A stretch of DNA of 64,000 bases from Candidatus Magasanikiibacteriota bacterium (GTDB lineage Bacteria; Patescibacteriota; Patescibacteriia; Magasanikbacterales; UBA922), in NCBI GenBank assembly GCA_016207245.1, contig JACQQA010000012.1:5722-69721 (forward strand), given 5' to 3'. The notes under the pieces are model-generated. The model did not search any database, was not told where the DNA came from, and worked only from the letters and a program-made list of their open reading frames with translations. The position numbers were made by a program, and so were the translations under genes. Below are positions 4,364-49,452 of this stretch, piece after piece. Every line of letters starts with the position of its first letter. The stretch's first letter is position 1.

Positions 4364-4970
4364 TTCTATTTTTTTCTAAAAGCTCCTTTAATTTTTTCAG
4401 CGCGCGGTGTAAAGTTACTCTGACATTTATTTGGCTTTTCCCCAAAATCCGCGCCACCTCCCCGGCTGATAATTCTTCTATATAATGCAATAACACCGCT
4501 TCTTGATATTCCAATTTCATTTTTTTTAAAGTCTTCATTATTTTTTCCACTTCTCCGCTAATCATCAGCCGATGTTCACCGCCGGCTTCTTCAACTGCCA
4601 AAGTTTCCACCACTGCGTCTAATGACGACTCCGGCAATCGTTTCGCCCGTTCACGATAAAAATCAACCACTAAATTTCTTGCTATCCGATAAATAAAACT
4701 CGCGAAACTTCTGATCTCTTGTTCGCTGTTTTCCACCAGATAATTCCAAGCTTTTAAAAATACTTCGCTGGTCAAATCCTCCGCTTCCTCACGACTGCTG
4801 ATTTTAAAGAAAATAAAACGATAAATCTTTTTCACGTATAAATCATAAAGTAATCCGTACGCTTCCGGATCTCTCTTAATTCTTACTTTATATAATAGCA
4901 ACTTCTCGTTTATCACGTCCTTCATAATATAAGACGGAGATAAGACAGAAATGTTACACCCCTTTTTCAC
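4356..4970 (-). CDS. ECF-family RNA polymerase sigma-70 factor (sigma-24-like)
   Basis: Region-2 motif LYDLYVKKIYRFIFFKISSREEAEDLTSEVFLKAW and region-4 HTH LSAGEVARILGKSQINVRVTLHRALKKL. The tracked ORF starts with GTG at 4970; the in-frame ATG at 4923-4925 (MKDVINEK...) is the more likely start. Confidence 0.85.
   Translation of the reverse strand: MKKGCNISVLSPSYIMKDVINEKLLLYKVRIKRDPEAYGLLYDLYVKKIYRFIFFKISSREEAEDLTSEVFLKAWNYLVENSEQEIRSFASFIYRIARNLVVDFYRERAKRLPESSLDAVVETLAVEEAGGEHRLMISGEVEKIMKTLKKMKLEYQEAVLLHYIEELSAGEVARILGKSQINVRVTLHRALKKLKELLEKNRIE
4926..4960 (-). promoter_or_regulatory. Possible ECF-type autoregulated promoter (GTAAC-N16-CGTCT) directly upstream of the sigma factor ATG
   Basis: Minus-strand sequence GGTGTAACatttctgtcttatctcCGTCTtatattATG resembles the AAC-N16/17-CGT ECF consensus. 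It would give a near-leaderless transcript. Confidence 0.25.
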
Positions 4971-5846: not shown

Positions 5847-7700
5847 ATGCGTTTTGTTGAAACACACCTAACAAAAGATCGTTTATTCCACAAACCCCAC
5901 AAGTGGTTCTTGGCTTTTTTGTTATCGCCAATTCATTTTCTTGAACTGCATTATAAAAATAAATACCATCTCAATTTTCAACATGCCAAAAAACTTTTTG
6001 TATTTGACATGGGACTGCTTCTGTCAGTCGTTATGCTTTTGGCCGCCACTATTTTTTGGTTCACTTACAACCCAACTATTACAAATTTAATTTTTTTATC
6101 AATTAACACATCTTCTCCTGACACCAAAATTATCAGCGGCGACTACCTCACCTACACTATCACCTACCAAAATAAAAGCGATATTAAAATTGTTTCTCCG
6201 TCTTTGACAACTAATTTGCCGTCGGGCTTTGTTATTGAGACGACAGAACCGAAAGAATCTTTTAATCCAATGGAGCGCAAATTTACTCTTGTCGATTTAT
6301 CACCCGAACAACATGGCCAAGCGGTGATCAGCGGCTGGTTTTACGGCACGCCGGGTGTTGAAAACAAAATTACCGCGATTTTAGAATATACGCAAGAAGG
6401 TCGGACAAACAAAGAGATAAAATCAACTCCCTTGTTTCAATTCCAACGCGGATCGGTTTTAAAAACTGAAATCAACGCGCCGGAAAAACTTATCGCCACC
6501 GGATCAACTCCGATCAAAATAACTTTAACTAATAATGGCAAACGGACGTTAAATAATATTACTCTGCCGCTCGCACTCCCTGCCGGGCTATCTCTGGTTG
6601 GACTAAAAACCGACAAAGAGAAAATAGAAAACAAGCGGTGGCAGATAGACGAATTAAAACCAAACGAAATAGTTAATCTTTCGGCCGAGTTAAAAACGAA
6701 TTTGTCGGAACAAACTAAAGCCGCGGCATTAAAGCTGACACCGTCAATAGAAGTAAACGGCGCAAAAATCGCCCAAAACACTGTTGAAAAAAACTTTTTG
6801 GTTTTGCATCCGCGAATTTCCGTCCAGTCTTATTGGACAAATGAATCTGAAAAAACGCAACCCGGACAAACGGTTGAGCTCAATTTATCCCTCGCCAACA
6901 ATGGCGATATTGATTTAAATAATTTGGAAATAACCGTGCCAATCCAAAGCGAAATTATAAACACCGCTAAATTGACAAAGTTAAACACCGGTAATTATAA
7001 AGACAAAATCTTTACCATCAATTCCAGACATAACGCCGGACTATTGATGCTGGCTAAAAATCAGACAAAAGATTTAACAATAAAAATTCCAATTCTTGAA
7101 TCGCCGGCTGACGGCGCTGACTTAATTTTGAAACTCAATCCGGAATTAAAAGCCAATCTTAATGAACTAACTGGCGCTGCTTATCAAACCAAAATTTCGG
7201 CTCCGGAAATAAAAATCGGCACGCAATTGGACTTAACCGGCGAGGTGCGTTATTTCACCGCTGACGGCGACCAGCTGGGCCGCGGTCCGCTCCCGCCAGA
7301 AGCTGGCAAGGAAACCAAATATTGGGCGCTGTTAAAAATCACAAACACCACCAGCAAAGTTACTAATTTGATTCTAACTGGTAAACTTCCCGAATATGTC
7401 GCGTGGACTAACAAAAGCAGTGTGAGCCACGGCAGTAGCGTAAATTTCAATGAAAAAACTAAAATAATTTCCTGGTCGCTTAACTCGCTCGCGCCGCAAC
7501 AAACTGTTGGCATCTATTTTGAATTAGCTTTAACGCCAACCGCCGAACAGGTTGGAACCGCGCCGATTATTTTACAAAATATTAAACTGGAAGCAACCGA
7601 CGACTTTATTAAAGAGAAAACCTCGCATACTCTGCAGGATTTAGATACTTCTTTGACACATGATTTGATTGGGAGAGAGAAAGGGGTGAAAATAAAATAA
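5847..7700 (+). CDS. Membrane-anchored protein with multiple DUF11/CARDB-like repeat domains
   Basis: N-terminal TM helix (LLLSVVMLLAATIFWFTY) followed by repeated ~100-aa units (e.g. TLTNNGKRTLNNITLPLALPAGLSL, LNLSLANNGDIDLNNLEITVPI). The true start may be the internal M near 6007. Confidence 0.5.
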   Translation: MRFVETHLTKDRLFHKPHKWFLAFLLSPIHFLELHYKNKYHLNFQHAKKLFVFDMGLLLSVVMLLAATIFWFTYNPTITNLIFLSINTSSPDTKIISGDYLTYTITYQNKSDIKIVSPSLTTNLPSGFVIETTEPKESFNPMERKFTLVDLSPEQHGQAVISGWFYGTPGVENKITAILEYTQEGRTNKEIKSTPLFQFQRGSVLKTEINAPEKLIATGSTPIKITLTNNGKRTLNNITLPLALPAGLSLVGLKTDKEKIENKRWQIDELKPNEIVNLSAELKTNLSEQTKAAALKLTPSIEVNGAKIAQNTVEKNFLVLHPRISVQSYWTNESEKTQPGQTVELNLSLANNGDIDLNNLEITVPIQSEIINTAKLTKLNTGNYKDKIFTINSRHNAGLLMLAKNQTKDLTIKIPILESPADGADLILKLNPELKANLNELTGAAYQTKISAPEIKIGTQLDLTGEVRYFTADGDQLGRGPLPPEAGKETKYWALLKITNTTSKVTNLILTGKLPEYVAWTNKSSVSHGSSVNFNEKTKIISWSLNSLAPQQTVGIYFELALTPTAEQVGTAPIILQNIKLEATDDFIKEKTSHTLQDLDTSLTHDLIGREKGVKIK

Positions 7701-7804: not shown

Positions 7805-7933
7805 TATCTGTCAATTTATGCCCAAATCGGGTATATTGGCAAGAGGAAGGACCGACGCTCTTTACAATAGATTGGATTCGCCATGTTGGCGAGTCTTGCG
7901 ATTTTCGTAATTTCAAGAAAAGCGAGGTGCGCG

Positions 7934-10399
7934 ATGGAGACTCTGGAAAAGGTCGTGGCGGTCGCAATGCTGTTCCTGTTCGCGATTCTGTTCGTTTCTG
8001 CGGGCTGTTCTACTGGAGTCAAATGGCAGTGCAAGAAGGACTTGGACTGCGACGACGACAATCTCTGCACCAAGGATTCTTGCAGTGCTGGCATCTGCCA
8101 CTTCGCGAAAGTCAAAGGGTGCGACAACCAGCAGGTGTGCGAAGACGACACTTGCGACAAGACTAACGACGGCGAGTCCAAGGTTGACTCGTCCCCGCCT
8201 CCAGACAATCCGTACAATCCACCGCCGGACACTACCACACCTGAACCCAGTCCGGACACAACGGACACTATTGACAGTGGAACGGAGAACGAGGAAGGCG
8301 GGACGACGGAGACGACCGACACCGCCAACCACGATACGGCGGATACGGACGCGACTAATGGAGATGCGGAAGTTGAGAGTGCTGACGAAGAAGTTGCCGG
8401 ACAGGATGCGGAAACGGCGGAAGCGGAGACAACTCAACTGCCGTGTATCACTTGTGACAATGACGTTGAAGCGTCAGATGCTGGTAGTGATACTGCCGGC
8501 AATGGAGCTGAGGCGTCAATCGCTAATCCCGATTCAAGTCCGGACACTACGGACAGCGGAACGGGGAACGATGGGACGGACGGGGACGGAGATGGCGGAA
8601 AAATCGTTCTGCCACTTCAAGATACTGTCGTCGGGACTGATACTCCAACTCCAGATGTTGTGATGACTAACGACAGCAGTGTCGGTCAAAACGACGATGG
8701 CACGGCAGGACTTGTAGAAATCGGAGTTGACAGTGAATCAGAGGTTGGTCAGAACACGGAAACGACGGAAGAGATATCTCAATCGCCGTGCATCTGCGCT
8801 GACGACAACAATCCATGCACCGACGACTTCTGCAACGACGCGAACCAGTGCGTTCACGAATCAATCGTGGACTGTTGCGTCAAGAACGTTGAATGCGACG
8901 ATAGCGATGTCTGCAATGGAGTGGAAACCTGCGACGCGAACAAGTGCGTCGGTGGTGAACCTCTCGTCTGCGACGACTTCAATGTCTGCACCGACGACTA
9001 CTGCGACTCGATGGACGGCTGCGTCTACGAGCCAAACTCAAACCCCTGTGACGATGGCAATGCCTGCACGATTGGCGATGTCTGCGAACAGGGCGAGTGT
9101 GCATACACGGAAACGTGTGAGTGCATCACAAATGCCGAATGCGGAGATGGAAACAAGTGCACCACTGAATCGTGCGTTAGCAACAAATGCAAGTACGATA
9201 ACGTGGGATGCAACGATTCCGACGCTTGCACCACAGACACCTGCGCTCCGGAAATCGGCTGTGTGTTCGCACAGATCGTCGTTGACGACAACGATGCCTG
9301 CACGGACGACAGTTGTAATTCGGACACGGGCGTGGCGCACATCATCAAGGACTGCGATGACAAGAATGCTTGCACTGCGGATTCCTGCGTCGATGGCCAG
9401 TGCGTCCACACTAACACTTGCGAGTGCATCACGAACCTTCAGTGCGATGACGAAGACATTTGCAGTGGAGTGGAAACCTGTGACGACAACAAATGTGTCG
9501 CGGGACAAAAACTCATTTGCAACGACTTCAACGTCTGCACCACCGACACATGCGACCCGGACAAGGGTTGCGTGTACGAACCGGTCAGCGGCTGCTGTAA
9601 GGCAGACGTTGACTGCAACGACCTCAACGAGTGCACCGGCGACGCGTGCGTCAAGTCCAGCGGTGAGTGTGTACACTTCGGCATCATGGGCAACTGTGAT
9701 GATACCAACGAATGCACCACTAACGACGCGTGCAAGGACAGCAAGTGCGTCGGCGGGCCAGCTCCTAGCTGCAATGACAACAATGTCTGCACCGCGGACT
9801 CGTGCGATTCGGCCATCGGCTGTCAGCATTCAGCTGTCAGCGACAACACGTCGTGCGCGGACAGCACAGTCTGCAATGGCGCGGAAACGTGCCAAAGCGG
9901 ACAATGCGAATCTGGCACGCCGCTTGTCTGCGACGACGGAAATCTGTGCACCGACGACTCATGCGACATGGCAGTCGGCTGCCAGCACGCCAACAACTCC
10001 AACCCCTGCGACGATGGCAACGCCTGCACGATTGACGACAGCTGTTCGCAGGGCGCATGTGAATCCGGTGCTCTCAAAAACTGTGGCGACGGGAAGAATT
10101 GCACCCTTGACATGTGCGATGTCAAGCTGGGATGTTTCAATCCTGTCTGGGGTGTTAACCCCAATGATGACTGCGGTAAATGGGACACAGACGGCGACGG
10201 CAAACAGGACAACGGCGCTGACGTGGACTCCGATAACGACGGGGTCTGCGATCCTGGCGAGTCGCAAACCACCGGACAACCTTGCGTCGGGTCGGATAAT
10301 TGCTGGCTAAAAACAAATCCCGCCCAAACCGATACCGACAACGATGGTCTTGGCGACGCCTGCGACCCGGACAAAAATGGAGATGGCATCCCCGACTAA
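7934..10399 (+). CDS. Secreted cysteine-rich repeat protein: CTDC-type (Dictyostelium-repeat / DUF4215 / Myxococcus Cys-rich-repeat-like) repeats followed by thrombospondin-type-3-like calcium-binding repeats
   Basis: At least 13 repeats with CxDxNxCTxDxCxxxxGC spacing (NVCTDDYC, NACTIGDVC, NKCTTESC, DACTTDTC, NACTADSC, NVCTTDTC, NECTGDAC, NVCTADSC, NLCTDDSC, NACTIDDSC, NCTLDMC). The C-terminus DTDGDGKQDNGADVDSDNDGVCDP...DTDNDGLGDACDPDKNGDGIPD has DxDxDG spacing. An acidic T/D/E-rich linker lies between them. Signal peptide METLEKVVAVAMLFLFAILFVSAGC follows an RBS (GAGGTG) before the ATG at 7934; the tracked ORF starts at 7883. GC content is clearly above the window average. Confidence 0.75.
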   Translation: METLEKVVAVAMLFLFAILFVSAGCSTGVKWQCKKDLDCDDDNLCTKDSCSAGICHFAKVKGCDNQQVCEDDTCDKTNDGESKVDSSPPPDNPYNPPPDTTTPEPSPDTTDTIDSGTENEEGGTTETTDTANHDTADTDATNGDAEVESADEEVAGQDAETAEAETTQLPCITCDNDVEASDAGSDTAGNGAEASIANPDSSPDTTDSGTGNDGTDGDGDGGKIVLPLQDTVVGTDTPTPDVVMTNDSSVGQNDDGTAGLVEIGVDSESEVGQNTETTEEISQSPCICADDNNPCTDDFCNDANQCVHESIVDCCVKNVECDDSDVCNGVETCDANKCVGGEPLVCDDFNVCTDDYCDSMDGCVYEPNSNPCDDGNACTIGDVCEQGECAYTETCECITNAECGDGNKCTTESCVSNKCKYDNVGCNDSDACTTDTCAPEIGCVFAQIVVDDNDACTDDSCNSDTGVAHIIKDCDDKNACTADSCVDGQCVHTNTCECITNLQCDDEDICSGVETCDDNKCVAGQKLICNDFNVCTTDTCDPDKGCVYEPVSGCCKADVDCNDLNECTGDACVKSSGECVHFGIMGNCDDTNECTTNDACKDSKCVGGPAPSCNDNNVCTADSCDSAIGCQHSAVSDNTSCADSTVCNGAETCQSGQCESGTPLVCDDGNLCTDDSCDMAVGCQHANNSNPCDDGNACTIDDSCSQGACESGALKNCGDGKNCTLDMCDVKLGCFNPVWGVNPNDDCGKWDTDGDGKQDNGADVDSDNDGVCDPGESQTTGQPCVGSDNCWLKTNPAQTDTDNDGLGDACDPDKNGDGIPD

Positions 10400-10608
10400 A
10401 ACCAACCAGCTCTTTCATAGCCGAAGCAATCCTTCCCGCTTCGGCTCCAATCCCTTTTGTTTATTTTAAAAGTAAACAGAAGAGAACCCCGCCCTGAGCT
10501 TGCCGAAGGACGGGGTTTTATTTATACTTGACTTATTGACCAAATTATTTTATAATTTCCGCAATAAAACAATGACACGCATTCGTCTCGCTTCGCGAGC
10601 CGAAACAA

Positions 10609-10680
10609 GCCGCCATCGTCTAGTGGTTAGGACACGAGGTTTTCAACCTTGTAACAGGGGTTCGATTCCCCTTGGCGGTA
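10609..10680 (+). tRNA. tRNA-Glu (anticodon UUC)
   Basis: GCCGCCATCGTCTAGTGGTTAGGACACGAGGTTTTCAACCTTGTAACAGGGGTTCGATTCCCCTTGGCGGTA. The acceptor stem pairs (G1-U72 wobble), the anticodon loop TTTTCAA gives UUC, and the T-loop GGTTCGATTCC is canonical. CCA is not encoded. Confidence 0.85.
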
Positions 10681-10687
10681 CAACCTT

Positions 10688-11782
10688 ATGCTCATCCTCG
10701 GCATTGAATCTTCCTGCGACGACACTTCAATCGCACTGATTGACGCGTCAGCGCGCGGTTTTAAAATACTGGCGGAAAAAACCGCGAGCCAAATTGAGGT
10801 GCACAAAAAATACGGCGGGGTGGTGCCGGAAATCGCGGGGCGGTGCCATGCGGAGCAAATTTTACCCTTGATTGAGAAAGTAATGAAACCCTTCGACTCC
10901 GCTCAGGGTAAACCGGATATAATCGCTGTGACATCAGGACCTGGTTTAATCACCGGCTTAATGGTGGGAGTGGAAGCGGCGAAGACATTGTCTTATTTGT
11001 GGAATATTCCTGTTGTTGCTGTCAATCATATTGATGGCCATATTCACAGTGTGGAGATTCAAAATTCAAAGAAACAAAAAACAAACAATATCAAATATCC
11101 CTGCCTCGCCGGCAGGCAGGCAATATCAAATATCCAATATCCCGCACTTGCGTTGATTGCGAGCGGCGGGCATACGGAGTTAATTTATATAAAAAAAGAA
11201 AACCATTATAAAAAAATCGGCACGACGTTGGATGATGCGGCCGGAGAATGTTTTGACAAAGTGGCAAAGTTGTTGGGGTTTGATTATCCGGGCGGACCAA
11301 AAATTTCTAAATTTGCTGAAACCGGCAATCCGCAGGCAATTAAATTTCCGCGTCCGATGTTAGACAAAAATAATTTTGATTTCAGCTTTGCAGGATTAAA
11401 AACATCCGCGCTTTATTGGCTTAGCGACAATTCTCCTAAAACCTATCACCTAAAACCTAAAACCTTAACAGACTTCTGCGCCAGTTTTGAACAAGCAATC
11501 ATAGATGTCCTCGTAGGCAAAACTCTCAAGGCAGCGGGAAAATACCAACCAAAAACTATTATCATGGGTGGAGGAGTAGCCGCCAATAAAAAATTACGAG
11601 AAACCTTGAAAGAACAAACCAACACACTTATTCCTAATTCATTATTCCTAATTCCTCAATTCGCCTACGCCATGGACAACGCCGCCATGATCGCTGTCGC
11701 CGGATATTATCACGCTATAAAAAAAGACTTCACGCCGTGGCAAAAACTCAAAGCCGATCCGGAGTGGGAGATAACGCGATAA
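10688..11782 (+). CDS. tsaD: tRNA N6-adenosine threonylcarbamoyltransferase TsaD (Kae1/Gcp family)
   Basis: N-terminal GIESSCDDTSIALI and the metal-binding HIDGHIHS motif. Carries an in-frame insertion encoded by a repeat element at 11087-11142. Confidence 0.85.
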   Translation: MLILGIESSCDDTSIALIDASARGFKILAEKTASQIEVHKKYGGVVPEIAGRCHAEQILPLIEKVMKPFDSAQGKPDIIAVTSGPGLITGLMVGVEAAKTLSYLWNIPVVAVNHIDGHIHSVEIQNSKKQKTNNIKYPCLAGRQAISNIQYPALALIASGGHTELIYIKKENHYKKIGTTLDDAAGECFDKVAKLLGFDYPGGPKISKFAETGNPQAIKFPRPMLDKNNFDFSFAGLKTSALYWLSDNSPKTYHLKPKTLTDFCASFEQAIIDVLVGKTLKAAGKYQPKTIIMGGGVAANKKLRETLKEQTNTLIPNSLFLIPQFAYAMDNAAMIAVAGYYHAIKKDFTPWQKLKADPEWEITR

Positions 11783-17111: not shown

Positions 17112-19667
17112 TTATACCACACTTTTCACAATAGTGGTACGCGTCTCCGCCCCAAACTTCTTCTTCAACACTTCTCCAACTCTCACATGCGCCGCGTCAA
17201 CTTCCGCGGATTCGAGTGTCTTGCTGTCTGAACGATAAGTAATGTGATACGCCAGACTCTTTTTACCGGCCGGTAAATTCTTGCCCTCGTAAACGTCAAA
17301 TATTTCCACGCTAGCAATCAGCCGGTCAACTTTTTTAAGCTCAAAAATAATTCGCGCGTGTTCAACTTTTTTATCAACCACAAAAGCAATGTCGCGAATT
17401 ACTTCCGGATAAACCGGCAATGGTTGATAGCGCAAAGAATTTTTTAAAACCAACAATAATTTTTCTAAATCCACTTCCGCCACTACCACTCGCTCGTTAA
17501 TTCCCAAACGCTCGGAAAATGACGGGCTGATCTCGGTAATCGCACCCACGCCTTCGCCATTTACTAAAATTTGCGCCTGCCTGCCCCTGTGGATAACTTT
17601 TCCGAGTTCATGGATTGCCGGCTTTAAAACCACGACACAACCAAGACGATCCAACACACCTGTCAAAGCCGCGGAAAGCTCATAAAATGGCGTTAAAACG
17701 CCTTTACCGGCAAAAACCAGACCCAAATACAGCGGCTGGCCGGGCAATAATTCATCGCTGTTTCCGGAAACCCGCAAACCGGCGACCTCGGAATTAAACA
17801 CTCTGCCGATCTCAAACATTCTTACCGCGTCAAAACGATGCAAATTCACTTCCGCGTTTTCCAACAGGCCGGGCCACAAACTGCGGCGCAAAAACGGACG
17901 ATCTTTAGCCACCGGATTGTCCAACTCTATTAAATCAGCGGGGTCAATTCCCAATCTCTCCAATAATTGTGGCGATACGAAAGAATAGTTATACACTTCG
18001 CTGAAACTAAATTCCAGCGCCAAAATTTCTTTTATTCTTCTTTCTAAACTTCTCAACTCGTTTTTAGGCGGAGGAACAATTGGAAACTTTGGCAATGATG
18101 TTGGAATATTGCCATAACCGTAAATCCGCGCCACTTCTTCCACCAAATCTTCGGCAATGGAAATATCTTTTGTCGCGCGCCAGGTTGGAATTTTAACCAA
18201 CAAAACATCTTTTTTTTCTTTAACTTCAAAATCAAGATCGGATAAAATTTTAACCGCCTGTTTCTTTTCTATTTCCAAACCGATTTTTTTAGATAAAAAC
18301 TCCAGCGGCAATTCAATCGGGCCTTGCTGTAAATGAAAATCTTTCACGTCAATAATTTTACTGGCGATTTTCGCGCCCGGGCACAATTCCAATGTCAATT
18401 CCAGCGCTTTTCGCAAAGCCAGTTCGCAATTGTTCGGGTCCAAACTCTTTTCAAACCGCGCCGAGCTGTCAGTGCGCAAACCAAGTTTGACGGAAGTCCG
18501 GCGCACATTCGCGGCATTAAAATTCGCTGATTCATAAATTACAGCAGTCGTCTCATCTTCAACTCCGCTTTCCCGCCCGCCCATCACCCCGGCCAACGCT
18601 ATCGCCTTATCATTTGAACTAATCACCAAATTCTCCGGTGTCAACTCAAACTCTTTCCCGTCCAAACTAACAAACCTCTCTCCCCCTTCCGCCCTTCGTA
18701 CAACAATCGTGATTTTTGATTTTTGATTTTTGATTTTTGATTTATCAAATGCGTGCATCGGCTGTCCCAAATCCAACATTACATAATTGGTGATATCCAC
18801 AATATTATTTATCGGCCGCAGACCGACTGCCAGCAATTTTTTTTGCAGCCAATCCGGCGACGGCGCGACTTTAATCCCCTCAATCGCCACCGCCATATAG
18901 CGAGGACATAATTTTTTATCCTCAACTCGTACGGACAGGTCGCGACCTGTCCCTATCTTGCAATCTTTAATTTTATAATTCACTAATTTTTTATTAAACA
19001 ACGCTCCCACTTCTCTCGCCATTCCATAATGTCCCCACAAATCCGGCCGATTGGACAAACTTTTGTTGTCAATTTCAAAAATAATGTCATCCAATCCGAG
19101 GACTGCGGACAACGCCTGCCCGCCGATGAGGTGGGGACTACCGACGATTTTGTCATTCCCGTGTAAACGGGAATCCATCGCGTTCGATTTCTGGATCCCC
19201 GCCTCCGCGGGGACGACAAATGAGAGGTCTAGAATCTCTTTCTCGTCTTTTAAGGGAAACCTGTCTCCCAATCCAATCTCGGTTGACGCGCAAATCATGC
19301 CGAATGATTCCACGCCGCGGATTTTCGCTTTTGCCAATTCAACCAATTCGCCTTCGCCGTGCCAGCGCACTTTCGCGCCAATTCTGCCAAACGCGACTTT
19401 CATCCCCTCTTTCACATTTGAGCCGCCGCAAACCACTTGCCAATCTTGCGCGCCGTCATTAACTATACAAACTTTTAACTTATCCGCGTCAGGATGTTTA
19501 ACAACTTTTTTTACCAAACCAACAACAATGTTATCCAAATCTTTTCCTTGCTTAACAATTTTTTCCACCTCCACCGTGCTCATTGTCAATTTCAACGCCA
19601 ACTCTTCCGGAGTGAGAGAGTTTGGCAGATCAATGTATTGTTTGAGCCAGTTAAAACTTATTAACAT
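17112..19667 (-). CDS. pheT: Phenylalanine--tRNA ligase beta subunit
   Basis: 851 aa; N-terminus MLISFNWLKQYIDL and a B3/B4 region (DDIIFEIDNKSLSNRPDLWGHYG). Contains apparent in-frame repeat-element insertions at 19152-19217, 18950-18969 and 18711-18745. Confidence 0.9.
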   Translation of the reverse strand: MLISFNWLKQYIDLPNSLTPEELALKLTMSTVEVEKIVKQGKDLDNIVVGLVKKVVKHPDADKLKVCIVNDGAQDWQVVCGGSNVKEGMKVAFGRIGAKVRWHGEGELVELAKAKIRGVESFGMICASTEIGLGDRFPLKDEKEILDLSFVVPAEAGIQKSNAMDSRLHGNDKIVGSPHLIGGQALSAVLGLDDIIFEIDNKSLSNRPDLWGHYGMAREVGALFNKKLVNYKIKDCKIGTGRDLSVRVEDKKLCPRYMAVAIEGIKVAPSPDWLQKKLLAVGLRPINNIVDITNYVMLDLGQPMHAFDKSKIKNQKSKITIVVRRAEGGERFVSLDGKEFELTPENLVISSNDKAIALAGVMGGRESGVEDETTAVIYESANFNAANVRRTSVKLGLRTDSSARFEKSLDPNNCELALRKALELTLELCPGAKIASKIIDVKDFHLQQGPIELPLEFLSKKIGLEIEKKQAVKILSDLDFEVKEKKDVLLVKIPTWRATKDISIAEDLVEEVARIYGYGNIPTSLPKFPIVPPPKNELRSLERRIKEILALEFSFSEVYNYSFVSPQLLERLGIDPADLIELDNPVAKDRPFLRRSLWPGLLENAEVNLHRFDAVRMFEIGRVFNSEVAGLRVSGNSDELLPGQPLYLGLVFAGKGVLTPFYELSAALTGVLDRLGCVVVLKPAIHELGKVIHRGRQAQILVNGEGVGAITEISPSFSERLGINERVVVAEVDLEKLLLVLKNSLRYQPLPVYPEVIRDIAFVVDKKVEHARIIFELKKVDRLIASVEIFDVYEGKNLPAGKKSLAYHITYRSDSKTLESAEVDAAHVRVGEVLKKKFGAETRTTIVKSVV

Positions 19668-23919: not shown

Positions 23920-23972
23920 AGATTGAATTGTTAAATTGTAAGAATCGACAGCGTTATTTATACTTCTTAAAG

Positions 23973-24067
23973 TCATTGCGAGCCTTCGCAGGCGAAGCAA
24001 TCCACACCGTTATCGCGTTCCCGTGCGATTGCTGGATTGCTTCGTCGCGCGAGCTCCTCGCAATGAC
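23973..24067. repeat. MITE-like element with terminal inverted repeats GTCATTGCGAG...CTCGCAATGAC (~95 bp)
   Basis: GTCATTGCGAGCCTTCGCAGGCGAAGCAATCCA ... GCTGGATTGCTTCGTCGCGCGAGCTCCTCGCAATGAC. Both halves are themselves hairpins. Related copies lie at 36880-36924 and 47103-47191. Confidence 0.8.
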
Positions 24068-25042: not shown

Positions 25043-25603
25043 ATGATAATTATAAAACAAAAATTACACCACCGAAAAAATAATCGCCTGCGTGGCTACG
25101 ATTATTCATCGAACGGTTTGTATTTCATAACAATTTGCGTCAAACACCGATTAAAACACCTCGGCGGTGTTTGGAACGCAAAAATGTGCGTCAATCGATT
25201 CGGTTCAATCGTTTTGCAACAATGGAATTGGTTGGCCGAACAATATCCGTATATTATATTGCACGAATTCGTCGTCATGCCAAATCACGTACACGGTATT
25301 GTGCAAATTGATTCATCATTGTTATCGTGTAGGGACAGGTCGCGACCTGTCCCTACACCGAATGCCGACACCACAATCAACCATATAACAAATAAAAAAA
25401 CGAAAATAAAACCATTGTCCGAAATCGTCGGCGCGTTCAAAACCACATCATCAAAATCAATCCATCGGAATGGTTTCCCACAATTCCAATGGCAACGATC
25501 ATTTTACGACCATATTATCCTTGACGAAAAATCATATTTTGCCATCACCAATTATATAAAACAAAATCCCGTCATTTGGTGGCGGGATAGAAATAATTTG
25601 TGA
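25043..25603 (+). CDS. REP-associated tyrosine transposase (RAYT)-like / IS200-IS605 TnpA-family HuH Y1 transposase
   Basis: GYDYSSNGLYFITICVKHR (N-terminal RAYT-like block), HuH motif VMPNHVHGIV and catalytic Tyr block YFAITNYIKQNPV. A 28-bp perfect palindrome (25329-25356) sits between the HuH and Tyr motifs. Confidence 0.7.
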   Translation: MIIIKQKLHHRKNNRLRGYDYSSNGLYFITICVKHRLKHLGGVWNAKMCVNRFGSIVLQQWNWLAEQYPYIILHEFVVMPNHVHGIVQIDSSLLSCRDRSRPVPTPNADTTINHITNKKTKIKPLSEIVGAFKTTSSKSIHRNGFPQFQWQRSFYDHIILDEKSYFAITNYIKQNPVIWWRDRNNL

Positions 25604-34877: not shown

Positions 34878-36247
34878 GCGATATGAAAAGCGGTAATAAT
34901 ACAATCTTCATCTGCTCCAACTGCGGCGCCCAATACCAAAAATGGACGGGTAGATGTTTAGAGTGTGGAAAATGGGGAACCGTCGTTGAACAGAATGCAG
35001 AATACAGCGAACAGAAAGCAAACGAAAAGAATTATGCACCGACTAAAACAATTAAATTATCAGAAATTAAAGGAGAAAATGTAAAAAGACAGCAGACGAA
35101 TTTGGCTGAATTTGATCGGGTGTTGGGCGGCCCTTCGACAAGCTCGGGGCAAGGCGGGATTGTGCCGGGGAGTTTAATTTTGCTGGGCGGAGAACCGGGA
35201 ATCGGCAAATCAACCTTGGCAATTCAATTGGCCGCAATAATACCAAACACGTTATATATTTCCGGCGAAGAATCCGTGGAACAAATAAAATTACGCGCTG
35301 AACGTCTACGGCTTACGGCTTCTAGCTTACGGCTGGCCAATGAAACATTGGTGGAAAAAATCTGCGCCACGATTAAAGAAACAAAATCGCCGTTGGCGAT
35401 AATTGATTCCATCCAAACAATTTATTCCGACGAAGTTCCCGGTGAACAAGGCAACATCAATCAAATTAAAGCCTGCGCGGTAAAACTTTTGGAAACCGCG
35501 AAATCAACCAACACCGCGATAGTCATTGTCGGCCACGTGACCAAAGACGGCGAGGTCGCCGGACCAAAAACCTTGGAACATTTGGTTGATGTTGTTCTTT
35601 ATCTTGAAGGCGAGCGCTATCATCAATATAGAATTTTAAGAACGGTAAAAAACCGATTTGGCCCGACTGATGAAGTGGGTATTTTTGAAATGAAAGAAAA
35701 TGGCTTGCAGGAAGTAAAGAATCCTTCCGCCAGTTTTCTTTCCGAACGCGGAGAAAATATGCCGGGAAGCGTTGTTACTTGTTTGTTGGAAGGAACGCGT
35801 CCGCTGTTGGTGGAAATTCAAGCGCTGGTAAATAAAACATCATTCGGCTATCCGGTGCGCAAAGCCAGCGGGTTTGATTTGAATCGTCTGCATGTTTTAA
35901 CCGCGGTTTTGCAAAAACGCGCCGGCTTGAATCTGGCGCAATATGATATTCATCTCAATGTTGTCGGCGGCATCACTGCCGACGAACCCGCGGCTGACTT
36001 GGCTGTTTGTCTCGCCATCGCCAGCGCTTACAAAGATAAAAAACTCGGCGCGGATTTAGCTGTCTTCGGCGAGGTCGGACTCGGCGGCGAAGTGCGCGGC
36101 GTTACGCAAATTGAAAAAAGAGTGAGAGAGTGCGAGAAGTTAGGAGTGAAGAGGGTGATTACACACCTAAATACGCAAGCACTTAAACACTTAAACATCA
36201 AAGTGACAGATGTGAAGAACATACAGGAGCTGATAAGACAGACGTAA
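34862..36247 (+). CDS. radA: DNA repair protein RadA (Sms)
   Basis: Zinc finger CSNCGAQYQKWTGRCLECGKWG, Walker A GGEPGIGKSTL and a Lon-like C-terminal domain. The probable start is M at ~34883. An in-frame repeat-derived insertion (PSTSSGQG) lies at 35133-35158. Confidence 0.85.
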   Translation: MHYQISDMKSGNNTIFICSNCGAQYQKWTGRCLECGKWGTVVEQNAEYSEQKANEKNYAPTKTIKLSEIKGENVKRQQTNLAEFDRVLGGPSTSSGQGGIVPGSLILLGGEPGIGKSTLAIQLAAIIPNTLYISGEESVEQIKLRAERLRLTASSLRLANETLVEKICATIKETKSPLAIIDSIQTIYSDEVPGEQGNINQIKACAVKLLETAKSTNTAIVIVGHVTKDGEVAGPKTLEHLVDVVLYLEGERYHQYRILRTVKNRFGPTDEVGIFEMKENGLQEVKNPSASFLSERGENMPGSVVTCLLEGTRPLLVEIQALVNKTSFGYPVRKASGFDLNRLHVLTAVLQKRAGLNLAQYDIHLNVVGGITADEPAADLAVCLAIASAYKDKKLGADLAVFGEVGLGGEVRGVTQIEKRVRECEKLGVKRVITHLNTQALKHLNIKVTDVKNIQELIRQT

Positions 36248-46625: not shown

Positions 46626-47705
46626 CTAATTTTGTGCGGATTTCCTCAACTTACACACAAAAAACCCCTCAATCTCCTTTGTCGGCATTATCCGCAGGGC
46701 TTTTTTGACAACATCTGGATTTACCACCTTATTTTTCCACAACTTCACACACGACAATCGCCGAATATCTAATACTCCAATATCCAATATCTCGCCATCG
46801 CCATTCCGTTCCAAAAATTTCGTCATCTGCAATTCGTTCTCCTCCGGCGCGAAGGTGCAAGTGGAATAAACTAAAATCCCGCCGGGTTTTAGCGCGCTCC
46901 AGGCGGCGAGCAAAAGCCCCCATTGCTTATACGTCATTTCTTTTATTTTTTGCTCTTTCCAATAACCGTGGGTTTTCGGCTCGCCGGCGATAAACCGCGC
47001 TTCGGCGCTGCAGGGGGCGTCAAGCAATATCTTGTCAAAATATTCCGGATACTCGCGGCACAGAGCGCCGCCGTGCTCCATCCTCAACGAAAACCGCCAA
47101 CTGTCATTGCGAGCGACCGAAGGGAGCGCGGCAATCCAGTATCCGTCCTGGATTGCTTCGTCCCCCGCCATGGCGGGGTCCTCGCAATGACAGACGATAC
47201 CGAGCGCCTCCATATTATGCTTTAACTTAAAAAATCTAATTTTGTTATTATCATTCGCCACTAATTCACCTCTTAGCCCTCCGCCCAAGGCGGATCCGTC
47301 TGGGTCGGACATCAACGCCGCGATCTGCGAAGTTTTGCTTCCGGGCGCGGCGGTCAAATCCAAAACTTTTTCTCCGGGTTGGGGATCCAAAACCAACGGC
47401 GGAATCATACTCGCCAAACTTTGGATATAAATTTTTCCCTCATTATAAATATCCAAATCCGTTAATTCTCTTTTGCTTTTGTTTAACAAAATAAACGCGT
47501 CTTTATACCACGAAACTTGTCTGATCTTAAATCCTCGCTCAACGAGTGATGTAGTGATGATGTGATGCGGTGATTTAAGTGTATTAACGCGAAAAGTAGT
47601 AGAACGTTCAACAAAAGTTTTCTCAATCTCGCGAAACAAAGAAACGCCAAACATCTCTGTCAGGCGCTCTAAAAATTTTTCCGGCAGACTACGATCATGG
47701 AACAT
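46626..47705 (-). CDS. rRNA (cytosine-C5) methyltransferase, RsmB/RsmF (NOL1/NOP2/Sun) family
   Basis: SAM-binding DLTAAPGSKTSQIA, catalytic DAPCS and YSTCT motifs. Contains three apparent in-frame repeat-derived insertions (46764-46791, 47103-47191, 47283-47297). Confidence 0.8.
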   Translation of the reverse strand: MFHDRSLPEKFLERLTEMFGVSLFREIEKTFVERSTTFRVNTLKSPHHIITTSLVERGFKIRQVSWYKDAFILLNKSKRELTDLDIYNEGKIYIQSLASMIPPLVLDPQPGEKVLDLTAAPGSKTSQIAALMSDPDGSALGGGLRGELVANDNNKIRFFKLKHNMEALGIVCHCEDPAMAGDEAIQDGYWIAALPSVARNDSWRFSLRMEHGGALCREYPEYFDKILLDAPCSAEARFIAGEPKTHGYWKEQKIKEMTYKQWGLLLAAWSALKPGGILVYSTCTFAPEENELQMTKFLERNGDGEILDIGVLDIRRLSCVKLWKNKVVNPDVVKKALRIMPTKEIEGFFVCKLRKSAQN

Positions 47706-47719
47706 AGAACATGGAACAA

Positions 47720-48088
47720 CTACCGCCCGAGCTTCCTTCTAATACCTTCATTGGTACTATAAAGCATAGCGCTGATTTCGTTTTCTAAAGTTTTTGCCTT
47801 TTTGTATTCTTCTTCAGTGATATGTCCTAAATTCTTTGCTAAAAATTTAACATAAATTGACTCTTTCAAAGAGCCAAAAGATGTTTCGTAAAAATTCAAT
47901 TTTACCGCGTCCCGCATTCTTGCATAACCTTCCAAATAATTCAACATCACCGAGACTGACGCTCGCCGATCTTGCGAAATCAAACCGAACCGTTCATCAG
48001 GTGGATACTTCGCGCTTAATCTATAACTTAACAAAACATATTCATGAATCAAAACTTTCAATCTATCATGAAAATAATGCTCCTCCAT
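47720..48088 (-). CDS. Four-helix-bundle protein (family often encoded in 23S rRNA intervening sequences)
   Basis: LSAKYPPDERFGLISQDRRASVSVMLNYLEGYAR resembles the conserved core of the four-helix-bundle family (TIGR02436-like); 122 aa. Confidence 0.5.
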   Translation of the reverse strand: MEEHYFHDRLKVLIHEYVLLSYRLSAKYPPDERFGLISQDRRASVSVMLNYLEGYARMRDAVKLNFYETSFGSLKESIYVKFLAKNLGHITEEEYKKAKTLENEISAMLYSTNEGIRRKLGR

Positions 48089-48132: not shown

Positions 48133-49452
48133 TCATGGTCTCAAACGATTAATCGTCCGCGGAAAGGGAACACACTCTCTGATGTGCTCGGCGCCGGAAA
48201 TCCAACGCACGACGCGCTCCACGCCAATACCAAAGCCGGAATGCGGCACCGAACCATATTTGCGCAAGTCTAAGTACCATTCATAATCTTTCTCGCTCAA
48301 ACCTTCGTGACCGATTCTCTCTATCAACAAATCATAATCATCCTCGCGCTGGGACCCGCCGATTAGCTCACCCGCGCCCTCAATCCCGATTAAATCATCA
48401 TTCAAAACCAAATCTGAATTTCCCGGATCTATTTTCATATAAAACGGCTTAATATTTTTAGGCCATTTTTCTATAAACACCGGCACGTCAGAATCTTTTG
48501 TTAAAAGCCCCTCGTCATCATTACCCAAATCCTCGCCATGTTTTATATCACTGCCTAATTTATTTAACTTTTTAATCGCCTCATCATAAGTATAACGAAC
48601 AAAAGGTTTATCAACCATCACCCTCAAAGCAGTCACATCGCGTTCCAAAATTTTAAATTCTTGTTGGCAATCTTCCAAACATTTTTTTACTATCGCCTTA
48701 ACTAAATTTTCTTGAATTTTCAAGTTTTCGTCATGTTCCACAAACGCGGCTTCAGCATCCATCATCCAAAACTCGGTCAAATGGCGTTTAGTCGCTGATT
48801 TTTCCGCGCGAAAAACCGGGCCAAAATCATAACACCGCCCGACTGACGCGATCGCGGCTTCAATATATAACTGGCCGGATTGAGATAAATAAGCTGTGCC
48901 TAAATCAAAATATGGCACGGGGAAAAGCGTGGTCGTGCCTTCGCAGGCATTTGGAGTAAAAATCGGCGAGTCAGTACGGATAAAATTCTCGCTGTGCAGA
49001 TATTTGTTAATCGCGGTCTCCACCGTGTCTCTAATCCGCAAAATCGCCCATTGTTTTTTTGACCGCAACCACAAATGCCGATTATCCATCAAAAATTCCG
49101 GCCCATGGTCTTTTTTGCTTATTGGGTATTCTTGCGCGAGTTGTATAATCTTGAAACTTGCTTGCCCTGAGCTTGCCGAAGGGATAATTTGCAACTCATA
49201 CACCCCTTCCTGCTTCGGATGCTTTGTGACTTTCCCCGTCACTTCAACCGATGACTCCTGCGTCGTCTTATCAATCGCTTCCCAAACTTCCGCCGGTAAA
49301 CCTTCTTTCACTGCCACGGCCTGCGCAAAACCAGAACCATCGCGGATTTCCAAAAACGCAATCTTGCCGGACGAACGTTTGTTGTTCAGCCAGCCTTTAA
49401 TTGTTACCTCCTCACCGACTTCGGTTGATAAATCTTTGATAAATGTTTGCAT
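48133..49452 (-). CDS. asnS: Asparagine--tRNA ligase (class IIb)
   Basis: OB fold FLEIRDGSG, the AsnRS-type LSQSGQLY motif (versus QSPQ in AspRS) and motif 3 GFGIGVERVVRWI; 439 aa. An in-frame repeat-derived insertion (PSASSGQAS) lies at 49168-49192. Confidence 0.65.
   Translation of the reverse strand: MQTFIKDLSTEVGEEVTIKGWLNNKRSSGKIAFLEIRDGSGFAQAVAVKEGLPAEVWEAIDKTTQESSVEVTGKVTKHPKQEGVYELQIIPSASSGQASFKIIQLAQEYPISKKDHGPEFLMDNRHLWLRSKKQWAILRIRDTVETAINKYLHSENFIRTDSPIFTPNACEGTTTLFPVPYFDLGTAYLSQSGQLYIEAAIASVGRCYDFGPVFRAEKSATKRHLTEFWMMDAEAAFVEHDENLKIQENLVKAIVKKCLEDCQQEFKILERDVTALRVMVDKPFVRYTYDEAIKKLNKLGSDIKHGEDLGNDDEGLLTKDSDVPVFIEKWPKNIKPFYMKIDPGNSDLVLNDDLIGIEGAGELIGGSQREDDYDLLIERIGHEGLSEKDYEWYLDLRKYGSVPHSGFGIGVERVVRWISGAEHIRECVPFPRTINRLRP

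Follow-up and report, generated by a model that had tools for sequence, protein, structure and literature searches.

This work concerns a 24-nt repeat that lies in frame within radA and asnS, and at further sites, in a 64,000-nt stretch of DNA (hereafter the window) from a Candidatus Magasanikiibacteriota bacterium (assembly GCA_016207245.1, contig JACQQA010000012.1) of the Candidate Phyla Radiation (CPR), and several described systems stand close to it. Repetitive extragenic palindromes (REPs) carry an unpaired end tag, GTAG or CGTC (TGTC/CCTC), with a CCA-like tail in the case of CGTC; they are mostly extragenic, often forming head-to-head dimers past genes, and a link to RAYT, a Y1 transposase, exists only for the GTAG type. 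IS200/IS605 elements, like the REPs mobilised by RAYT, need subterminal hairpins and a Y1 (HUH) transposase. Among the Rickettsia palindromic elements (RPEs), RPE-1 is reportedly palindromic and some 100-150 bp long, adding 30-50 residues. Intragenic REPs of the GTAG and CGTC superfamilies are 20-40 bp long, GC-rich and present in several phyla (Di Nocera et al. 2013, PMC3733652), and REPs are by definition stem-loops with a stem of 5-13 bp (Table 1 of PMC3733652). In particular, single intragenic REPs sit in frame in known proteins, often those of replication or repair genes, and add 8-9 residues, and CGTC REPs are intragenic in several species without a known transposase (PMC3733652). RPEs (Ogata et al. 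2000, as cited in the same paper) lie in frame in housekeeping open reading frames (ORFs), which remain intact, at surface positions, in a reduced-genome host. [quoted passage not shown] Correia/NEMIS, RUP and Nezha) measure 70-300 bp and have terminal inverted repeats of 15-30 bp and target-site duplications (PMC10969869).

Our main finding is that radA and asnS of the window each carry one copy of a discrete 24-nt unit, inserted in frame, which has entered one loop of RadA repeatedly and is present in many bacterial phyla. A search of the window for the pattern CCCTTCGNCAAGCTCNGGGCAAG, with up to 3 mismatches allowed, returned three matches, at 35131-35153 (+) in radA, at 49161-49183 (-) in asnS and at 10488-10510 (-) between genes, and none of the 100 dinucleotide-preserving shuffles that served as the control contained any. 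A looser search, for the two halves of the 24-mer with a variable centre, added a variant copy in tsaD, which is read in another frame to give PFDSAQGK; three of the four window copies are thus intragenic. The insert stretch in radA, GCCCTTCGACAAGCTCGGGGCAAGG, occupies 35130-35154, and the asnS copy matches the pan-bacterial consensus exactly. What is more, the radA and asnS segments are identical at 22 of 24 nt, to each other and likewise to copies from other phyla that are read in other frames or lie in non-coding DNA. In translation they yield RVLGG-PSTSSGQG-GIVPGS in RadA and ELQI-IPSASSGQA-SFKII in AsnRS. An earlier note, made from the letters of the window, had reported the same PS(T/A)SSGQ peptides, which read as it said, and the same three copies; these all exist, but its positions were off by 2-9 bases, the copy given as 35133-35158 lying at 35130-35154, the reverse complement given as 49168-49192 at 49160-49183, and the intergenic copy given as 10488-10512, which has 3 mismatches, at 10487-10510 on the minus strand.

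The window RadA is 100% identical to a database protein named RadA of Candidatus Magasanikbacteria; its recorded start is the ATG at 34883, and a look-up of the ORF with a GTG start gave no match. Since Logan assemblies made independently from runs SRR12113383 to SRR12113385 contain identical RadA and AsnRS proteins, inserts included, the inserts are not an assembly artefact. A sequencing-adaptor or assembly origin is excluded as well by a diverged copy at the radA site of a relative and by the presence of the repeat in finished isolate genomes.

Judged by alignment with relatives, both segments are clearly insertions. When the window RadA is aligned over its whole length with the S. pneumoniae RadA structures (5lkm, 8rxc), there is a single gap, of 8 residues, and it faces PSTSSGQG; in the AsnRS structures of T. 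thermophilus and P. horikoshii (5zg8, 1x54), an 8-residue gap likewise faces the asnS segment. The RadA segment is missing from 110 of 120 homologs and the AsnRS segment from 119 of the 120 best homologs, and a peptide scan of both homolog sets found no family-like peptide at any other position. At the DNA level, an empty radA allele is provided by a relative (locus L006, 88% identical), which reads GTG CTG GGC GGC GGG ATT where the window has GGC GGC [CCT TCG ACA AGC TCG GGG CAA GGC] GGG, that is, 24 extra bases, with a boundary that is ambiguous by 3 nt because of the flanking GGC. Ortholog alignment, which the earlier note had proposed as a check, shows exact 8-residue gaps and an empty allele that is 24 nt shorter. 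For asnS, removing TC together with the 22-base core leaves ...ATT ACA AGT TTC, read ELQI-TS-FKII, which fits the T-S/D/N/G pattern of most close homologs at this place, and we infer that this was the empty allele. Being a perfect consensus copy without a counterpart in relatives, the asnS copy appears to have arisen within this lineage.

The limits of the unit were obtained by aligning 129 exact-core copies from other genomes and calculating the information content of each column. The family unit emerges as a sharply bounded 24-mer, C-CCTTCGRCAAGCTCAGGGCAAG-C, with about 2 bits per column over the 22-base core, 1.66 at the preceding C, 0.86 at the following C and approximately 0-0.2 elsewhere. 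It contains no stop codon in any of its six frames, which read PSTSSGQA, PFDKLRAS, LRQAQGK, LALSLSKG, CPELVEG and LPRACRR, although this alone is not significant, as we estimate that about one third of random 24-mers of equal GC content share the property. The 24-mer is not a good palindrome in itself and forms no stable hairpin: its folding energy is -0.9 to -2.1 kcal/mol (z of -0.1 to +0.9 against shuffles), its best self-structure is a 4-bp stem around an 11-nt loop, and on direct reading neither end is an inverted copy of the other. A strict target motif was considered and dropped, the flanks yielding only a weak preference for GAC on the 5' and CTC on the 3' side. The motif itself matches no family in Rfam, and no paper in the literature library that was searched has either its DNA words or any of the six peptides. 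As to an origin from a universal RNA, the 24-mer is not known to bear any convincing resemblance to rRNA, the T-arm of tRNA, tmRNA, signal recognition particle RNA or RNase P RNA, nor to the Tn3 inverted repeat.

The Gly loop of RadA is where the family can be followed through a phylogeny. Ten of the 120 RadA homologs have an insert there (Table 1), and at the DNA level the inserts of relatives are recognisably of the 24-mer family, with 3-5 mismatches from the consensus. In a comparison with the inserts masked, insert-bearing sequences are polyphyletic, each with empty sisters; for both P0022 and P0023, for example, all five nearest neighbours (87-91% identical) are empty. Parsimony requires either 7 gains or 1 gain and 24 losses. 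The gains fall within two adjacent codons, in a single orientation and frame, and in the relatives' loci L005, L129, L130 and L131 (about 36 kb in total) the radA copy is the only copy of the family. The inserts of the window and of P0003 are identical at 19 of 24 positions, which equals the gene-wide nucleotide identity of 81%; the two may share one insertion, as drift at about the gene-wide rate would fit, with a separate gain also possible. The earlier note had held that the same segments in orthologs of other lineages would speak against insertion, and formally such segments are there in RadA, since other Magasanikbacteria lineages have H/P/S/T-S-T/A-G/S/D-S-G/A/E-Q at this loop. However, polyphyly, empty sisters and the fact that the DNA consists of diverged copies of the repeat argue for repeated insertion and not for an ancestral RadA loop. 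On this phylogenetic reading, the Gly loop appears to have gained the family at least 6-7 times in Magasanikbacteria, always in the PSTSSGQ frame.

Beyond the source genome, the sequence comparisons place the repeat family very widely. A scan of one genome per species for the exact 22-base core found it in at least 120 genome stretches of many phyla, with flanks that are unrelated between loci; among the matches listed are Pseudomonadota, Acidobacteriota, Cyanobacteria, Chloroflexota, Planctomycetota, Bacteroidota, Omnitrophota, Latescibacterota and several CPR groups. Cultured isolates with the core include Methylomicrobium sp. wino1, Sphingopyxis granuli NBRC 100800, Citromicrobium and Microcoleus, and 17 matches come from viral contigs. 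Sphingomonad megaplasmids carry the core at unannotated sites, and a pair of inverted copies stands 17 nt past the end of a gene in Novosphingobium pSA1. As the repeat is present in cultured sphingomonads, the question of how it spreads is open to experiment.

The contexts of these copies are coding sequence, hairpin apices and arrays. Of 18 copies deep inside long ORFs of low-GC genomes, 11 are read in the PSTSSGQ frame, 3 as LRQAQGK, 2 as PFDKLRA and 2 in antisense as PELVEG (binomial P = 3e-5); eight of the 18 hosts could be named by NCBIfam, namely GyrB, PNPase, LeuRS, DprA, NusA, Fmt, transketolase and a beta-CASP nuclease. There is also an enrichment at hairpin apices: 10 copies are flanked by perfect inverted repeats of 6 bp or more, against 1.5 expected. 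The clearest case is the Acido-Lenti-1 RNA motif (Rfam RF01687) of Acidobacteria, which exists in two forms, one that has the 24-mer in the apical loop of hairpin 1 and one that lacks it: L050 has at 6668-6737 and 6875-6944 sequences that fit the whole model and contain 25 nt where the consensus has 1 nt, and L012 has at 4445-4490 and 4707-4750 the form without it. The window has no match to the Acido-Lenti-1 covariance model, and the 24-mer of L050 is an insertion in a loop of the model, outside the family. The composite is seen again in L011, L077, L084, L102 and L118, and this recurrence at several loci means that the composite itself has multiplied. The loops of CGTC-1-type REPs hold the 24-mer in L033, L053, L054 and L064, L028, L030 and L126 have arrays in which tandem copies follow each other with a period of 24 nt, and in L009 and L026 some copies lie within others, at their centre and following CGAC. 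Arrays or short-tandem-repeat settings were also noted at L028 (approximately 249-320), L030 (1684-1729) and L073 (4719-4816) and in L086, L092 and L040; an in-frame 24-nt tandem array encodes a PS(T/A)SSGQA repeat in a Flavobacteriales ORF, and the 24-mer often lies within short tandem repeats such as CAACTGT-like heptamers in cyanobacteria and AAGGAT runs.

In the proteins, both window inserts are predicted to fall in surface loops, as mapping of the insertion points onto models, also suggested in the earlier note, indicates. In the AlphaFold model of RadA, insert residues 84-91 are in coil between a helix (75-81) and a strand (98-103), and the 10-residue block with the insert has a predicted local distance difference test score of 58, compared with 81 and 86 for the adjoining blocks. 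In that of AsnRS, insert residues 90-99 are in coil between strands 85-89 and 100-104, in a beta-hairpin of the N-terminal OB fold whose tip they form. Thus the inserts lie, as RPE-type insertions do, in frame in intact ORFs at positions that the fold tolerates. The empty sites at the DNA level were examined for hairpins with a mixed outcome: the radA site of P0002 lies close to a weak hairpin's apex (z = -2.0), and those of P0004 radA and of asnS are negative, so that the hairpin-apex preference is not extended to coding targets.

TsaD offers an instructive comparison, as two of its loops range in length between 26 and 70 residues over 120 homologs and contain, in different lineages, PFDSAQG, HLTPNPSPCKGEG, PLLVRGG, NIKTLKH, PASSAGRQ, IPAFAGMT (which equals CGTC-1) and VIASHSEAI...APRND; homologs P0242 and P0244 have PFDFAKG and PFDSTQG. 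Loops that hold so many repeat families point to permissive protein loops, and not to a shared DNA target, as the common factor. The window tsaD (10688-11782) has in addition a loop, HIHSVEI...YPALALIASGGHTE (notably 11087-11135), that bears the palindrome CTGCCTCGCCGGCAGGCAGGC, read CLAGRQA, with a direct repeat of 14 nt, AATATCAAATATCC, on either side (at 11087 and 11122); this duplication suggests an insertion mechanism different from that of the 24-mer.

Table 1. The 24-mer copies of the window, their host genes, the associated hairpin, and the inserts at the Gly loop of RadA.
Feature	Position in window or carrier	Strand	Description
radA copy, CCCTTCGACAAGCTCGGGGCAAGG	35131..35154	+	encodes (G)PSTSSGQ(G); from sequence reading and pattern search
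asnS copy, CCCTTCGGCAAGCTCAGGGCAAGC	49160..49183	-	encodes (I)PSASSGQA
Intergenic diverged copy, TCCTTCGGCAAGCTCAGGGCGGGG	10487..10510	-	forms hairpin loop and inner stem; 3 mismatches to pattern
tsaD variant copy, CCTTCGACTCCGCTCAGGGTAAA	10890..10912	+	from two-halves search; centre TCC replaces AA
radA, insert host	34883..36247	+	full length: zinc ribbon, Walker A, Lon-like C-terminal domain; E = 1e-125 to 8rxc/5lkm, residues 13-459
asnS (asparagine-tRNA ligase), insert host	48133..49452	-	full length; E = 3.5e-130 to 5zg8
Terminator-like hairpin	10485..10524	+	11 pairs, 11-nt loop from repeat, then TTTTATTTAT
RadA inserts	window and P0003		GPST[S/G]SGQ
RadA inserts	P0022 and P0023		GHSTGSGQ
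RadA insert	P0061		SSTGSEQG, one codon upstream
RadA insert	P0096		TSADSAQ, 21 nt
RadA inserts	four-member clade		heavily diverged segment

The intergenic copy is part of a hairpin that the earlier note had rightly called terminator-like: 11 bp with the repeat as the loop, followed by TTTTATTTAT. The hairpin stands 86 nt past the stop codon (10399) of a gene for a Cys-rich repeat protein and upstream of a tRNA (10609-10680), with a promoter-like site nearby at 10528-10556. As DNA it folds at -8.5 and -9.9 kcal/mol (z = -2.5 and -3.3), the stem being supplied by the flanks of the copy. A GC-rich hairpin followed by a T run on the 3' side of a gene is what intrinsic terminators have, and that function is predicted here from the sequence; the terminator scan omits the hairpin because its 11-nt loop exceeds the limit of 8. 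An Rfam search of the window and of the intergenic copy returned only tRNAs and sub-threshold noise. The Cys-rich repeat protein gene itself is large (7883-10399), has a local GC content of 56% as compared with 45% for the window, and is overlapped by long spurious ORFs in other frames.

How did the cassette come to be in these places? We consider it probable that the 24-mer is a short repeat multiplied by copy and paste, the visible copies of which were filtered by selection for frame, for a benign peptide and for a permissive loop. In this explanation each segment would be one copy of the discrete 24-nt cassette, a short interspersed repeat, and a copy-and-paste process would write new copies into DNA. 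With 8 codons and no stop in six frames, such a unit can enter a gene without frameshift or truncation; selection would then remove the copies that damage proteins, so that the survivors would be found in surface loops and, within coding sequence, mostly in the flexible, hydrophilic PS(T/A)SSGQ frame. Outside genes the cassette would tend towards the apex of existing hairpins, where it could join a terminator-like stem-loop. It would be mobilised in trans by an enzyme it does not itself encode, without target duplication, and our best guess is that this would involve a single-stranded intermediate. What the data show directly is the insertions, the family with its boundaries and its phylogenetic range, the recurrence, the bias in frame and the position in loops; the mobility of the unit we infer from its distribution. 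The earlier note had likewise proposed a mobile insertion followed by selection for frame: insertion and family membership hold, and selection for frame on coding copies is supported (11/18, P = 3e-5), while mobility has the standing just given.

That said, several points weigh against this explanation. To begin with, movement itself was not observed, and the 10 ORFs of 110 aa or more in the multi-copy loci L009 and L026 matched only housekeeping Pfam families, with no transposase or other gene for mobilisation among them. What is more, the 24-mer alone folds no better than shuffles, unlike the substrates of hairpin-recognising transposases, and a comparison of flanks for target-site duplications (k = 1-5 at nine offsets, against shuffled pairings) gave no signal, the matches for k = 2 being 15 against 10.7 expected. 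The flank preference is weak as well, with a 5' GAC at 14% of copies (5% expected) and a 3' CTC at 17%. In tsaD, the loop with the variant is longer than the commonest form by only some 4 residues, which means that not every copy is a clean 24-nt addition. Finally, recurrence at one loop of RadA and in one frame could reflect targeting or a history of gain and loss. Taken together, the lack of a hairpin and of a linked transposase in the sample disfavours the standard RAYT or IS200/IS605 route, and the sharp ends favour an enzyme-defined unit over template switching.

Template switching is nevertheless the core of the alternative that survives best, although we hold it to be rather unlikely. 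Namely, the 24-mer could be a patch templated during replication or break repair, and not an element with an enzyme of its own: at fragile or permissive sites, template switching or repair through microhomology would copy it from elsewhere in the genome. Such a process would need neither a target duplication nor a nearby transposase, in line with the ORFs of L009 and L026, and it fits the 3-nt GGC microhomology at the radA junction, the tandem 24-nt and 15-nt arrays, the nested copies and the many unrelated repeat families that collect in TsaD loops. It would also suit the tsaD variant, whose right half, GCTCAGGGTAAACC (AQGKP), overlies the commonest native xQxKP, with a net gain of about 4 aa. 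However, patches should have ragged ends, and the boundaries are sharp over 129 copies; the microhomology at the asnS junction is at most 1 nt, and the occurrence of the same 24-mer in many phyla is left unexplained.

A more speculative possibility, to which we give only a small chance, is that the 24-mer is made by an undescribed, widely shared writing mechanism that adds one cassette to single-stranded or broken DNA. Reverse transcriptases and primase-polymerases would be candidates, as would HUH enzymes that use a fixed template, and the sites of writing would be hairpin apices and hot spots such as the Gly loop of RadA. If this were true, it would amount to a new class of ultra-short mobile element, spread over many phyla and without ends, a hairpin or a gene of its own.

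Targeted insertion, in which an element or enzyme recognises particular DNA sites (the GGN-GGN-GGN of radA, hairpin apices) and the RadA recurrence reflects its specificity, strikes us as quite improbable. It draws on the at least 6-7 independent RadA gains in two adjacent codons and in one orientation and frame, on the radA copy being the sole family member in some 36 kb of relatives' loci, on the enrichment of the unit at hairpin apices, on the nesting of copies at the centre of others after CGAC, and on the empty radA site of P0002 near a weak hairpin apex (z = -2.0). On the other hand, the targets in asnS, radA and tsaD have no sequence in common, the information content of the flanks is close to zero, the empty P0004 radA and asnS alleles show no hairpin, and the many families in TsaD loops suggest that what the insertions share is a permissive protein loop.

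It is very improbable, in our opinion, that the 24-mer is in the first place a functional nucleic-acid motif under selection, be it a protein-recognised loop, a terminator or an mRNA-stability module, with coding copies that are incidental or regulatory. Identity of the 22-base core in distant phyla, its frequency in hairpin loops downstream of genes and the terminator-like setting of the intergenic copy in the window would all agree with such a role, but Rfam has no match to the motif itself, the coding copies have no stem at all, the copies of P0003, P0023, P0061 and P0096 have diverged from the consensus, and presence is patchy even among close relatives. Lastly, a vertically inherited ancestral loop, or a Ser/Gly linker grown in place with nothing inserted from elsewhere, has in its favour the similar peptides at the same position in several RadA lineages and the equality of the window/P0003 insert identity (19/24) with the gene-wide 81%, but it is virtually without a chance, being already contradicted by the missing segment in 110/120 RadA and 119/120 AsnRS relatives, by the polyphyly of the RadA carriers with the 24 losses it requires, and by the 22/24 nt that radA, asnS and copies of other phyla in other frames or non-coding DNA have in common.

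The window contains further repeats, and some of these lie in essential genes as well. Repeats of the TTGTCATTCCCGCGAAAGCGGGAACCCAG type at 19150, 20727, 20764 and 29736 fit the CGTC-1 REP consensus, with a TGTC tag, an 8-bp stem starting with AT, a 4-nt loop and a CCA tail; CGTC-1 was described in Alphaproteobacteria, Neisseria and Rickettsia, and here it is found in a CPR genome. In pheT (17112-19667, minus strand), an in-frame pair of CGTC-1-type REPs at approximately 19150-19220 is read VVPAEAGIQ...DSRLHGND (residues ~150-172), a stretch that does not align with solved PheT structures. The same gene has a perfect palindrome, GGGACAGGTCGCGACCTGTCCC, at 18933-18954, read GTGRDLS at residue 239 and present in a second copy at 25333-25354, and, within its coding region at 18710-18740, a short tandem repeat of TTTTTGA with a period of 7 nt. 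Another perfect palindrome, CCCGCCATGGCGGG, with an NcoI core, has four copies (3009, 33400, 36836 and 47164), all outside long gene-like ORFs, two of them in repeat clusters adjoining GTCATTGCGAG-type repeats; inverted pairs of the form GTCATTGCGAG...CTCGCAATGAC are at 23972-24067, 36914 and 47103-47191. The cluster at 47100-47200 is just downstream of the gene (47720-48088) for a 23S rRNA intervening-sequence (four-helix bundle) protein, which is itself downstream of asnS.

These observations mean that even very small CPR genomes have short repeats, active now or in the recent past, that settle in essential genes; in the present 64 kb these are radA, asnS, tsaD and pheT. Such repeats mark insertion-tolerant loops, which are hit again in independent lineages; they also distort alignments, trees and domain calls of housekeeping markers and create spurious small ORFs. 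The puzzle is that an identical 24-mer is present across phyla without a hairpin, terminal repeats or an associated gene, and CGTC REPs pose the same gap.

Returning to the systems with which we began, the 24-mer is like REPs in being short and interspersed, in its presence in several phyla, and in adding 8 residues in frame, its inverted pair just downstream of a gene in a sphingomonad may be a further likeness, and it is like CGTC REPs in having no recognised transposase in the ORFs sampled. Unlike REPs, it has no stable stem-loop, neither C-CCTTCGRCAAGCTCAGGGCAAG-C nor its flanks have a GTAG or CGTC tag, and it is often found inside the loops of other hairpin repeats (CGTC-1 REPs, Acido-Lenti-1). 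Its six peptides are absent from the catalogue of intragenic REPs (PMC3733652). With RPEs it shares in-frame insertion in intact housekeeping ORFs, surface positions and a reduced-genome bacterium as host, but it is non-palindromic, 24 nt long and present in many phyla, and RPEs are confined to Rickettsia. MITEs, too, are non-autonomous and multi-copy, lie in genes as well as between them and are at times read through in frame, but the 24-mer is too short for a MITE and has neither terminal inverted repeats nor a target-site duplication. Finally, it resembles IS200/IS605 elements in the lack of target duplication, a bias towards DNA that is single-stranded or in hairpins, and a weak 5' motif, and differs from them in having no hairpin of its own and no Y1 (HUH) gene among the 10 ORFs sampled. 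In other words, the 24-mer behaves as intragenic REPs and RPEs do without belonging to the REPs, MITEs or RPEs. The phenomenon therefore has a precedent, and what is new is a non-palindromic 24-mer without recognisable mobility features that is spread across many phyla, is frequently found within other repeats' loops and has repeatedly hit one loop of RadA, a recurrent hot spot.

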